Source: a virus | Lineage: Duplodnaviria > Heunggongvirae > Uroviricota > Caudoviricetes | Strand: one strand, 5' to 3' | Length of the DNA stretch: 10,662 bases | Virus record (IMG/VR): IMGVR_UViG_2703718871_000019 | Location: 1-10,662 of that record | In this document: in pieces, positions 7,765 through 10,662 of the stretch | Position numbering within the stretch: the stretch's first letter is position 1 | Layout: every line of letters starts with the position of its first letter | Made by a program: the position numbers and the translations under genes | The notes under the pieces: generated by a model | Seen by the model: the letters and a program-made list of their open reading frames with translations, nothing else | What the model was told of the DNA's origin: nothing | Databases searched by the model: none

Positions 7765-8055
7765 TTAACAGGTTTTGTTTGGATACTGTCTTCGTGAGTG
7801 AACTACATTTACGATCTCGATGTTAGATGCTGTTACTCGGTAAAGTATTATGTAGTTAGGATGAGTCACTATCTCACGAAGACTTGGAACTCTTTCGCTC
7901 GGTGGGTACAGATAAGGGTGTTCAGTAAGTGACAAAACTGATGTTTCAATGCGTATTTTTAGTCTACGTGCAGCGGGAGGGTTTTCCTTAGCAATATAGG
8001 CTACGATCTGACGTAAATCATCACGTGCAGAAGGTAGCCATAAAATGGGCAGCAT
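7765..8055 (-). CDS. ParE/RelE-superfamily type II toxin (ParE2-like)
   Basis: 96 aa. N-terminus MLPILWLPSARDDLRQIVAYIAKENPPAARRL and C-terminal ...IEIVNVVHSRRQYP are typical of ParE toxins. Its start overlaps the stop of the upstream antitoxin (TAATG). Confidence 0.85.
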   Translation of the reverse strand: MLPILWLPSARDDLRQIVAYIAKENPPAARRLKIRIETSVLSLTEHPYLYPPSERVPSLREIVTHPNYIILYRVTASNIEIVNVVHSRRQYPNKTC

Positions 8056-8246
8056 TACTCACTCCTGTTCGTTGCAGCTAATTGAGCAATAAGGTTTTCC
8101 ATTTCAGCCATTACTTCGTCATGTGGAATTGCAGGACGGGGATCTGAGAGGCTTGCTGCCACTTTGGCTCGCAACCATTCGTTATAGCTGTTTTCTTGTT
8201 CGACTGTTTCAAATTCAGAAATTATCGGGGAAAGGGCTGTACTCAT
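8055..8246 (-). CDS. Small type II antitoxin, PaaA2-like, partner of the ParE-type toxin
   Basis: 63 aa, acidic, immediately upstream of and translationally coupled to the toxin. GGAGG SD 6 nt upstream of the ATG. Size and arrangement match the PaaA2 antitoxin of the O157 paaR2-paaA2-parE2 module as I recall it. Confidence 0.7.
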   Translation of the reverse strand: MSTALSPIISEFETVEQENSYNEWLRAKVAASLSDPRPAIPHDEVMAEMENLIAQLAATNRSE

Positions 8247-8263: not shown

Positions 8264-8764
8264 TTAGGCGCGACGACCCTTTTGCGCGGCTAGCCATCGC
8301 GCAACGATTTCTTCAATTGATTCTTTTTTCTCCTTCATTTCCTTAAGCATTTTCTCTTTATCTTCTTTGGGGAAAGCCCTGAACGTCTGGAGCAAATCCC
8401 GCTCCATGGGGTCTATATTAAACGGAAGTTCGTTTTCCGATTGTTCCATATCTGCAGATATAGTGACAACATTGTCCTCCCCAGATTCTTGGGGATACAT
8501 CCTTACAATTTGTAACAACTCGGCCATATCTGGTCTGATTGACTCGGGAGGAACTTGCAGCAACCCTGCGAACTTGATAACAGCCTCAAGATTTAAAGGT
8601 GTCTGACCATTTAGATAATGGCTTACAGCTCCCTGTGTCGAAAATCCCAGAATTTCTGCCGCACGCTCTTGGGTTAACCCTAGTTGATTTTTTTTCGCCG
8701 TCCAGATTTCTTTCAGTCTCTGGGCGGCTTGCAGGTCGATCTCTGACAGGGATTTTCTTTTCAT
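8264..8764 (-). CDS. HTH (XRE/cI-type) transcriptional regulator, PaaR2/RacR-like; likely prophage immunity repressor and TA operon regulator
   Basis: 166 aa. N-terminal helix-turn-helix LGLTQERAAEILGFSTQGAVSHYLNGQ. No S24 peptidase domain is visible in the C-terminus. It is the first gene of the operon and is divergent from the cro-like gene across a repeat-rich operator region. Confidence 0.8.
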   Translation of the reverse strand: MKRKSLSEIDLQAAQRLKEIWTAKKNQLGLTQERAAEILGFSTQGAVSHYLNGQTPLNLEAVIKFAGLLQVPPESIRPDMAELLQIVRMYPQESGEDNVVTISADMEQSENELPFNIDPMERDLLQTFRAFPKEDKEKMLKEMKEKKESIEEIVARWLAAQKGRRA

Positions 8765-8871: not shown

Positions 8872-9147
8872 ATGAATCTTGGAGAATATTTGCATCATTC
8901 CGGTATAACTCAGAAGCATTTTGCTGAAATTGTTGGGGTAACCCAAGGGATGGTAAGCCATGTCATTACCGGACGGGCGAAACTTACGGGGGAAAAAATT
9001 TTACGCTGGTGCGAAGCAACAGGCTGGATAGTAACTCCGCACGAGATTGATAGCAGTACTTATCCCAACCCAACCGACGGCTTACCTGTCGAGTATCAGG
9101 CTAACACACAACCAGAGGCGGGGGTGATTCATGAAAATCAAGCATGA
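8872..9147 (+). CDS. Cro/YdaS-like HTH DNA-binding protein
   Basis: 91 aa with GAGGTGA SD. HTH segment QKHFAEIVGVTQGMVSHVITGRAKLTGEKI. Divergent from the repressor and first gene of the rightward operon. Confidence 0.75.
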   Translation: MNLGEYLHHSGITQKHFAEIVGVTQGMVSHVITGRAKLTGEKILRWCEATGWIVTPHEIDSSTYPNPTDGLPVEYQANTQPEAGVIHENQA

Positions 9148-9556
9148 ACACATCCGCATGGCAATGAATGCCTGGGCGTATCCAGACGGTGAGAAAGTTC
9201 CAGCAGCTGAAATAGCCCGGACTTATTTCGAGCTGGGGATGACGTTCCCGGAACTGTACGACGACAGCCATCCGGAAGCCCTGGCTCGTAATACCCAGAA
9301 AATTTTCCGCTGGGTGGAGAAGGACACGTCTGATGCTGTTGAAAAAATTCAGGCGCTGTTACCGGCGATCGAAAAGGCGATGCCGCCTTTGCTGGTGGCC
9401 CGTATGCGCAGTCACAGTTCTGAATATTACCGGGAGATCGTCGAACGACGGGATCGGCTGGTGAAAGATGTGGATGATTTTGTCGCTGTAGCGATCGCCT
9501 GGGGCACCCTGACTAACAGTGGTGGTCAGCCTGGTAATGCAGTTGTTGTGCATTGA
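9131..9556 (+). CDS. YdaT-like protein (cII-position regulator/toxin-like family)
   Basis: 141 aa, overlapping the cro-like gene by 17 nt. Size and position match Rac YdaT; the sequence-level resemblance is from memory only. Confidence 0.65.
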   Translation: MKIKHEHIRMAMNAWAYPDGEKVPAAEIARTYFELGMTFPELYDDSHPEALARNTQKIFRWVEKDTSDAVEKIQALLPAIEKAMPPLLVARMRSHSSEYYREIVERRDRLVKDVDDFVAVAIAWGTLTNSGGQPGNAVVVH

Positions 9557-9618: not shown

Positions 9619-10662
9619 GTGAGTATGGCTAATGCCTGGCTCAGATTGTGGCATGACATGCCAAATGACCCCAAGTGGCGAACGATTGCCAGGGTATCAG
9701 GACAGCCAATCGCAACAGTGATGGCAGTGTATATCCATCTTCTGGTGAGCGCGTCACGAAATGTCACGACATGTCACGGCGTGTCACTACGTGGTCACAT
9801 TGATGTCACGACGGAAGATTTAGCAAGTGCGCTTGATGTGACGGAAGACGTAATTGATTCAATTTTGCATGCAATGCAGGGGCGGGTTCTGGATGGTGAC
9901 CTTATTTCCGGATGGGAAAAACGTCAGGTGCTGAAAGAGGACAATGGTAACGTTTCGCAAACGGCAAAATCCCCGGCAGAGCGCAAGAGAGCGCAGCGGG
10001 AGCGCGAAAAGCTGCGGAAATATGATGCTGATTGTCACGATGAGTCACGACGTGTCACGCATCTGTCACGACAAGTCACGACAGATAAAGATACAGATAC
10101 AGAATTAAACCCCACACATAACGCGCGCATGCGCGAGAGTGCTCCAACCGGTGAGTCGAATGGTGCGTCGTTGCAGACAGCCGAACCTGAATACCTGGAC
10201 GGCCTGAGCGAACCGATCGGGAAATTTTCGATGACCACTGTCTGGCAGCCGTCGCCGGATTTTCGACAACGGGCAGCAGTGTGGGGTATGGCTCTGCCTG
10301 AGCCGGAATTTACACCTGCTGAGCTTGCCGCATTCCGGGATTACTGGATGGCGGAGGGGAAGGTTTTCACGCAGGTTCAGTGGGAGCAGAAATTTGCCCG
10401 CCACGTGCAGCACGTCAGGGCACAGGTAAAACCAGTCAGCAAGGGGGTAAGCCATGCAGCATCAGGTGGCACGGCATCACGGGCAGTTCAGAAAATCCGG
10501 GCAGCACGAGAACAGTGGGAACGTGAAAACGGATTTATCAGCAACGGAAACGGCCTGGAAGCTGTGGGAACTTATGGGGGAGGTGTATTCGAACCGATGG
10601 ACCCAGAAGAACGGGGCTGCGCCGTCGAAACTCTGGATTGCTCAGATTGGCGCGATGACTGA
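9619..10662 (+). CDS. Phage replication initiation protein (YdaU/O-like N-terminal region with DnaT-like C-terminal domain)
   Basis: 347 aa with AGAGGTGAG SD. N-terminus ANAWLRLWHDMPNDPKWRTIARVSG is typical of prophage replication proteins. C-terminal WQPSPDFRQRAAVWGMALPEPEFTPAELAAFRDYWMAEGKVF resembles the primosomal DnaT C-terminal domain. The gene contains iteron arrays. Stop TGA is the last 3 nt of the window. Confidence 0.8.
   Translation: MSMANAWLRLWHDMPNDPKWRTIARVSGQPIATVMAVYIHLLVSASRNVTTCHGVSLRGHIDVTTEDLASALDVTEDVIDSILHAMQGRVLDGDLISGWEKRQVLKEDNGNVSQTAKSPAERKRAQREREKLRKYDADCHDESRRVTHLSRQVTTDKDTDTELNPTHNARMRESAPTGESNGASLQTAEPEYLDGLSEPIGKFSMTTVWQPSPDFRQRAAVWGMALPEPEFTPAELAAFRDYWMAEGKVFTQVQWEQKFARHVQHVRAQVKPVSKGVSHAASGGTASRAVQKIRAAREQWERENGFISNGNGLEAVGTYGGGVFEPMDPEERGCAVETLDCSDWRDD
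9751..9845. repeat. Iteron array 1: six to seven GTCACGA/GTCAC repeats at 10-11 bp spacing inside the replication gene
   Basis: GTCAC at 9753, 9763, 9773, 9783, 9794 and 9805, with a degenerate TGTGACG at about 9837. The repeats are in frame and encode ...SASRNVTTCHGVSLRGHIDVTTED.... Confidence 0.65.
10031..10110. repeat. Iteron array 2 (five GTCACG repeats) followed by an AT-rich tract; probable replication origin
   Basis: GTCACG at 10034, 10044, 10054, 10065 and 10075 with 10-11 bp phasing, followed immediately by ACAGATAAAGATACAGATACAGAATTAAA. This is the lambda-type arrangement of iterons plus an AT-rich unwinding region within the initiator gene. Confidence 0.65.

Follow-up and report, generated by a model that had tools for sequence, protein, structure and literature searches.

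The replication initiator gene at the end of a 10,662-nt stretch of Caudoviricetes DNA (IMG/VR record IMGVR_UViG_2703718871_000019; the whole stretch is called the window below) carries, within its own coding sequence, two arrays of short direct repeats (iterons) with the core GTCACG, repeated about once per helical turn. The downstream array (array 2) abuts an A-rich purine tract, and the upstream one (array 1) is embedded in the part of the gene that encodes the predicted DNA-binding domain (DBD). We consider it probable that both arrays are binding sites of the gene's own initiator protein, with array 2 and the adjoining tract acting as the core of the replication origin and array 1 serving as an accessory cluster. 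Both the binding by the gene's own product and the identification of array 2 and the tract as an origin are what we infer from comparing homologous sequences. The initiator open reading frame (ORF; 9625–10662, + strand, 345 codons) closes the window, as seen from the ORF list and its translation, and its 345-amino-acid product was assigned as a replication initiator from this list, from the RefSeq annotation of an identical prophage in Escherichia coli IBS28 and from PHROG replication-initiation families.

Array 1 (9753–9811, + strand), delimited by motif positions, Tandem Repeats Finder (TRF), homologue comparison and an AlphaFold2 (AF2) model, consists of six GTCAC(G) cores starting at 9753, 9763, 9773, 9783, 9794 and 9805, that is, at spacings of 10, 10, 10, 11 and 11 bp. 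Three of these are exact copies of GTCACGA, one reads GTCACGG, and two are degenerate (GTCACTA and GTCACAT). Array 2 (10034–10081, + strand; motif positions, TRF and AF2), the presumed core initiator-binding sites, has five GTCACG cores at 10034, 10044, 10054, 10065 and 10075 (spacings of 10, 10, 11 and 10 bp), four of them exact GTCACGA and one GTCACGC. All seven exact GTCACGA copies in the 10.6-kb window lie within the two arrays. In the 25-kb prophage region we counted 10 phased pairs of the form GTCAC-N4-7-GTCAC, nine of them in the arrays, versus 0.16 expected from shuffled sequences; no further phased GTCAC array was found in this region, where the remaining match was a lone, chance-level pair at position 14209 of L001. 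The first-pass annotation of this DNA had placed two such arrays inside the initiator gene, and we located the cores where it had put them, all on the + strand and within the ORF. Its description of a 10–11 bp, one-turn phasing was likewise borne out by the measured core spacings and by TRF, which assigned period 10 to both arrays, and the repeats are iteron-like by comparison. For array 1 it had counted six copies plus a degenerate seventh: six were indeed present, two of them being the degenerate ones, but no seventh copy was found in the array. What had been counted may be an isolated inverted core (9838–9842, - strand, reading GTGAC on the + strand), which lies approximately three helical turns past array 1 and outside the range given for it. 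This inverted core tracks the motif class of the phage; it reads GACGTGACA in phages of the GTCACG class and GACGTTGCA in those of the GCAACG class (equivalent site CGTTGC), with sites at gene nucleotides 166 and 196 in L008.

The arrays had also been described as being kept in frame and as encoding a repetitive peptide. Their coding location held, but the peptide is not a true periodic repeat, since the 10–11 bp unit rotates through the three reading frames. Indeed, the iteron core is translated as S-R (TCA CGx), as V-T (GTC ACG) and as x-H (xGT CAC). We compared synonymous sites at invariant four-fold-degenerate codons in 19 GTCACG-class genes, whose alignment was gap-free across the domain. 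The third-position entropy was 0–0.59 bits inside the iteron core and 1.31–1.98 bits elsewhere (Mann-Whitney p = 2.7e-4), and the third positions in the spacers between cores varied freely. The synonymous sites within the cores of array 1 are therefore nearly frozen, and selection acts on the DNA. Taken together, the reading of the cores in three frames and their synonymous freezing rule out a peptide repeat, codon bias or neutral duplication as the source of the pattern.

To follow the arrays through the protein family, we surveyed 79 loci, taken from one genome per species, together with the phage loci; 68 loci were left once dereplicated. Array 2 was scored when at least three exact phased hexamer copies lay downstream of a conserved W..RQ motif and directly beside a purine tract, and an upstream array was scored when the same hexamer, with one mismatch allowed, formed a phased chain of at least three copies in the DBD-coding zone. 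At this detection threshold, array 2 was present beside a purine tract in 47 of the 68 homologues; the thresholds are arbitrary, and some loci scored without array 2 hold two exact copies together with degenerate ones. The same hexamer was also arrayed in the DBD zone in 33 of these 47 genes, in the same orientation as array 2 in 31 of them and inverted in two. In control zones of equal size, the tally was 1/47 downstream and 0/47 upstream, and swapping the motifs between unrelated loci gave 11/650. As the surveyed loci share ancestry, such counts do not represent independent events. An independent scan of IMG/VR at the DNA level, looking for three phased GTCACG copies, identified two same-strand arrays, 240–340 nt apart (mode 260), in 73 of 120 contigs. 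A comparison with homologous replication genes had been proposed as a check on whether both arrays are conserved, and the answer is a divided one, with both kept in the 33 genes above and array 1 absent from the other array-2 carriers. Likewise, the presence of two arrays in one initiator gene, which had been called unusual, is so when set against lambda, but represents the majority state within this protein family.

The sequence of the hexamer differs between lineages, and each lineage's motif class occurs in both of its arrays. The E. coli phages Evi and 204576, the Pseudomonas phages phita81A and Marin, and Aeromonas pAEv1818, in which the N-terminal half of the protein is 59–85% identical at the amino acid level, carry GTCACG arrays at both gene positions, with four copies upstream and 3–5 downstream; a four-copy upstream array is found at the equivalent position in E. 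coli, Pseudomonas, Aeromonas, Bordetella and other homologues. Ralstonia phage Hennie (38% identical) has GCAACG in both arrays, followed by a purine tract of the GAGAAG type, and a Cupriavidus prophage also has GCAACG in both. The classes that we distinguished, namely GTCACG, CGAACG/AACGCA, GTGACG, GTAACG and GCAACG, share a 3' ACG and differ in the 5' triplet. Because the hexamer switches in both arrays together, a single specificity determinant appears to read both. The same lineage-specific, concerted switching disfavours the earlier suggestion that array 1 might be bound by another factor.

The initiator itself is predicted to consist of a winged-helix domain, a disordered linker and a DnaT-like single-stranded DNA-binding domain. 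Its N-terminal domain (residues 1–100, encoded at 9625–9924 on the + strand) is a predicted winged helix-turn-helix that we presume to be the iteron-binding part. The AF2 model was confident in this part, with helices at residues 2–14, 16–25, 29–45, 63–70 and 74–84 followed by a beta hairpin at residues 85–95; beyond it, the model placed a helix at residues 117–137 and then a disordered linker at residues 138–194. Array 1 encodes residues 43–62, which form the end of helix 29–45 and the loop towards helix 63–70, and array 2 encodes residues 137–153, at the end of helix 117–137 and the start of the linker. The N-terminal 127 residues matched no Pfam family at E ≤ 10, the N-terminal domain matched no NCBIfam model at E ≤ 1, and the PDB fold matches of the N-terminal domain (Foldseek, full model) were weak ones to winged-helix regulators, the strong matches all being to DnaT. 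A weak PHROG match linked the initiator to a DnaD-like helicase loader (E = 8e-7). The C-terminal domain (residues 201–267, encoded at 10225–10425 on the + strand) corresponds to the DnaT-like single-stranded DNA-binding family PF17948 (E = 2.8e-17, 62.6 bits versus a cut-off of 25), the sole Pfam match in the initiator, and Foldseek matched it to the structures 6aeq and 4ou6 (E = 1e-5, up to 58% identity, TM-score to target of approximately 0.9). The match to the NCBIfam DnaT model was partial and, at 94 bits, missed the full-length equivalog cut-off of 201 bits, so that the C-terminus should be seen as a domain relative and not as DnaT itself. Given its level of identity to the host primosomal DnaT domain, the phage initiator may imitate, or have borrowed, a part of the PriA-DnaT restart pathway. 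In Pseudomonas phage Marin (L006 1501–2401) the initiator is annotated as two ORFs (1501–2061 and 2051–2401), while phita81A has a single 900-nt gene; the split in Marin might reflect a frameshift or a sequencing error directly past the origin tract.

Array 2 runs into the A-rich purine tract ACAGATAAAGATACAGATACAGAATTAAAC (10081–10110, + strand), a series of (GAYAMA)n hexamer repeats recognised by TRF and base composition, which we presume to be a DNA unwinding element. TRF reported positions 10081–10103 as a period-6 repeat of ACAGAT with 3.8 copies, and between 10080 and 10119 the GC content drops to 35% with an AT skew of +0.54. A tandem tract had been noted here before, and it is real, but its former label of AT-rich is less fitting than A-rich or purine-rich, and it covers only around 30 bp. 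In GC-rich hosts, the equivalent tracts are built of GATAAA, GAGAAG or CAGAAG. The flank of array 1 holds no adjoining purine- or AT-rich tract, and the synonymous sites past array 1 vary normally. A mosaic recombination junction, given by the boundaries of megablast matches, falls inside the hexamer tract (10089–10106): matches to Evi-type phages end at about 10103 (query 604), and those of the PPompW/Actinobacillus vB_Apl-pPE4 type begin at about 10089–10106 (query 590–607). With the junction at this place, the DNA-binding domain and both arrays move as one unit, apart from the C-terminal DnaT-like domain, which is the outcome that would be expected if the N-terminal half reads the sites.

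By analogy with lambda ori and with the replisome organizers of other phages, array 2 and the purine tract are most likely the origin core. We assign the core to array 2, as it always abuts the purine tract, even in GC-rich hosts, as it extends into the disordered linker next to the mosaic junction, and as some lineages carry array 2 alone. To the right of the tract, on the C-terminal side of the junction, the sequence contains a perfect 12-bp GC palindrome, CGCGCATGCGCG (10124–10135), whose placement recalls the palindrome to the right of the AT-rich region of lambda. Among close relatives, this palindrome is variably mutated or partly deleted.

The lambda-ori arrangement that had been proposed for array 2 and its tract fits our comparison, as both sit between the DNA-binding and the C-terminal domains, over the linker at residues 138–194 of the AF2 model. 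As in lambda ori, and in the Stx phages P27 and 933W, the central part of the initiator gene contains repeats and a strand-asymmetric A/T-rich tract, located between the domains for DNA binding and for partner binding. Also like in lambda, a P-type gene comes next, the gene lies in the pR operon of a lambdoid prophage, and a mosaic junction is found at the origin. The lambda iteron is an inverted repeat of approximately 19 bp that is bound by an O dimer. Unlike lambda, which has one cluster of four iterons, the present gene carries 6–8 bp direct repeats in one orientation, one per helical turn, and a second cluster 230–280 bp upstream, in the sequence coding for the DNA-binding domain. The iterons as well as the AT-rich stretch of lambda and Stx phages are located mid-gene in O, and their copy number varies in frame, with four iterons in lambda versus six in Stx phages (PMC7466680). 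The initiator described here is, however, no homologue of lambda O, and Phage_rep_O (PF04492) was not among its Pfam matches.

A second group of relevant systems comprises the replisome organizers of SPP1 (gp38), TP901-1 and Tuc2009, which bind direct repeats inside their own genes beside an AT-rich unwinding element (PMC6316719, PMC8965321). The gene in the window resembles those for SPP1 gp38 (oriL), TP901-1 ORF13, Tuc2009 Rep2009 and r1t Pro11 in combining short direct repeats and a presumed unwinding element within the initiator's own gene. Pro11 of r1t reportedly protects four 6-bp repeats within 47 bp, which would be the same geometry of short hexamers at one per turn. The N-terminal domain of the present initiator gave no Pfam match to the organizer N-terminal family. 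SPP1 does have a second site, oriR, but it is far off, at approximately 13 kbp on the circularised genome, and comes with an unwinding element of its own, whereas here the second array lies in the same gene and has no tract. To our knowledge, no Gram-positive replisome-organizer phage has been described in which one gene holds a conserved pair of arrays. By this analogy, the gene may function like the in-gene origins of lambda and of the replisome-organizer phages while standing outside the lambda O family.

Array 1 varies in copy number, in position and in presence. The six-copy array of the window equals the four-copy allele of phage Evi and most homologues plus 21 bp (9769–9789, + strand), an expansion by the seven codons TCHGVSL and two extra iterons that was recognised from the protein alignment and the copy-number survey. 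The predicted local distance difference test (pLDDT) score of the AF2 model is below 50 at residues 49–55, within this expansion, and the six-copy form is the prevailing one in the closest E. coli prophage contigs obtained from IMG/VR. Copy numbers in array 2 and in the tract also differ among near-identical E. coli prophage contigs (L089–L168), with 3–6 copies of the iteron and 2–9 copies of the GAYAMA hexamer; such variation suggests that in-frame slippage is frequent. The upstream array of L070 and L076 is located in another loop, between the second and third helices, and in L073 it is found there too, in inverted orientation; L037 has extra copies past the first strand, and L083 and L088 have 8–9 copies. 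These relocated or expanded arrays lengthen the protein by 8–30 residues, and the upstream array keeps a distance of 190–300 bp from array 2. Array 2 and the tract without an upstream array were found in L071, L087, L074, L058 and the Manatee Spring phage; no clear case of array 1 without array 2 was seen among the surveyed loci. Judged by this natural variation, the survey shows array 1 to be dispensable in some lineages, and array 2 with its tract to be near-universal in the family.

A working model of the origin can be drawn from these observations. The N-terminal winged-helix domain would read both arrays, probably with one monomer per 10–11 bp, arranged head to tail along one face of the helix. 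Such a head-to-tail initiator filament on one DNA face is suggested by the short direct cores, which occur one per turn and all point towards the tract. On array 2, the filament may open the adjoining A-rich tract, and the host helicase would then be recruited by the DnaT-like C-terminal domain together with the P-like protein encoded downstream. Array 1 might raise the local occupancy by the initiator and cooperate with array 2, by looping or wrapping, to build the origin complex. We favour such a cooperative, enhancer-like role for array 1 because its orientation and its distance from array 2 are kept. A related arrangement is found in the satellite phage P4, where one initiator binds ori and crr, two clusters of the octamer TGTTCACC that both serve a single origin. 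The P4 initiator is the unrelated alpha primase-helicase, its clusters lie outside coding DNA and kilobases apart, and crr is required in cis; unlike in P4, the arrays here are approximately 260 bp from each other, and some lineages lack array 1. More tentatively, across this widespread initiator family of proteobacterial prophages, the two arrays could form a bipartite origin, the upstream half of which would be written into the codons of the very DNA-binding domain that reads it, with the array having been re-inserted repeatedly in surface loops at around 200–300 bp from the tract.

Several points weigh against this interpretation. Around 30% of the array-2 homologues have no array 1, and any contribution of array 1 can therefore not be essential. 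The helical phase between the two arrays was uninformative, with a Rayleigh R of approximately 0.5 at every trial period from 10.0 to 11.0 among loci that are phylogenetically non-independent, and the purine tract is short (~30 bp). No simple pattern was found between the residues of the recognition helix or wing and the motif class, a comparison that is confounded because the residue after the conserved RG is set by the iteron itself. Given this result and the lack of a curated family for the N-terminal domain, we infer rather than observe that this domain binds the iterons. Lastly, we found no binding or replication experiment on any family member in the literature.

A negative role of array 1 is a serious rival to the accessory role that we favour, even though we consider it somewhat doubtful. 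In line with the autoregulatory or handcuffing site that the first-pass annotation had proposed, array 1 might titrate the initiator, handcuff with array 2 on the same or a sister molecule, or act as a roadblock for polymerase from pR, and would in each case limit the synthesis of the initiator and P as well as origin firing. The P1 incC/incA and F incB/incC systems provide the precedent, in that an origin cluster and a control cluster of one repeat, the latter dispensable for initiation and exerting negative control, lie near the initiator gene; their iterons are approximately 19–22 bp long, are located outside coding sequence and are bound by unrelated proteins of the RepA/RepE type. As with incC and incA, there are two clusters of one presumed initiator-binding repeat here (the same hexamer in 33/47), which implies the same protein for both, and the natural lineages without array 1 fit the dispensability known from such plasmid control iterons. 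The variable copy number of array 1 (3–9) and its location in the 5' portion of the transcription unit that encodes the initiator itself are also in line with a control site. Unlike in P1, however, both clusters lie inside coding sequence and have a unit of 10–11 bp. Moreover, a brake on replication is of no obvious benefit during lytic growth, titration alone would not demand the near-constant match in orientation and the 190–300 bp distance, and array 2, which is in the gene as well, could already be a roadblock.

It is improbable, in our view, that the arrays' binding partner is not the initiator but another protein, for example a host factor or the YdaT/cII-like activator encoded upstream. 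Lambda CII binds in-gene direct repeats of TTGC that are spaced by 10 bp, and the short direct repeats at 10 bp resemble such sites; a YdaT/cII-like gene also lies directly upstream of the initiator gene, here and in several relatives. Yet the arrays accompany the initiator in phage Hennie and the Manatee Spring phage, in which no YdaT-family gene is annotated directly upstream in the fetched region, and they hold 4–9 copies and not two. Their origin-like position, the purine tract and the fact that the motif class follows the initiator lineage all argue against such a protein, as do the lack of an above-chance sigma-70-type promoter signal and of a DnaA box in the window. We regard it as very improbable that array 1 is a second, independent origin: it has as many sites as array 2 or more, but it has no purine- or AT-rich tract beside it, the synonymous variation after it is normal, and it is missing from several lineages whereas array 2 and its tract are near-universal. 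Finally, that the repeats have no function at the DNA level hardly deserves any weight, since, even though a loop and a disordered linker both tolerate insertions, we rejected peptide repetition, chance and neutral slippage duplication on account of cores read in three frames, synonymous freezing inside the cores only, concerted motif change between the arrays in several classes, and 10 observed pairs versus 0.16 expected.

A lambdoid prophage of E. coli IBS28, whose insertion site adjoins tRNA-Ser and mtfA, matches the region at 100% identity, and DNA matching at least part of the region was present in 2,171 of 5,426 complete E. coli genomes (40%). The initiator gene is preceded by genes for a cI-like repressor (8264–8764, - strand), a cro-like protein (8872–9147) and a YdaT/cII-like protein (9131–9556), and is followed by a short 'replication protein P' (153 amino acids), an order that puts it in the position of lambda O. 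The cII position is held by a protein of the YdaT 'toxin' family, which also had a PHROG match to CII-like activators, and a RelE/RelB-type toxin-antitoxin pair lies beside the cI-like repressor at 7765–8246. The window contains no DnaA boxes, and the counts of internal promoters and terminators equalled the shuffle expectation, with no sigma-70-type promoter signal above chance. The N-terminal half of the initiator matched over 1,200 protein clusters; among the family's members are prophages of pathogenic E. coli, Pseudomonas, Bordetella and Ralstonia, close relatives are named 'phage replisome organizer' by NCBI, and no characterised member was found in the literature.

Our literature searches likewise turned up no account of GTCACG iterons or paired in-gene arrays. 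As far as we can tell, three features are new, namely a second array that is conserved within the coding sequence of its presumed reader domain, the concerted specificity switches across at least five classes, and the repeated relocation of the array among loops. The comparison yields an origin map and at least five natural specificity classes for the family, and the paired arrays offer a simple signature for annotating prophage origins and replicon types. Array 1 could be destroyed by synonymous recoding with the protein left unchanged, which gives a clean genetic handle and makes the gene a tractable system for studying how origin firing responds to an auxiliary cluster of initiator sites at a distance of a few hundred base pairs. 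The gene is also a clear example of a regulatory DNA code laid over a protein code, measurable both in synonymous-site evolution and in loop insertions. Should the origin be bipartite, a change of specificity would need the domain, array 2 and a run of codons within the domain itself to change in concert. And if array 1 is needed in cis for firing to be efficient, for instance through looping or the capture of nascent initiator during coupled transcription-translation, it would represent a novel mechanism by which mosaic phages impose cis-action and replicon specificity.

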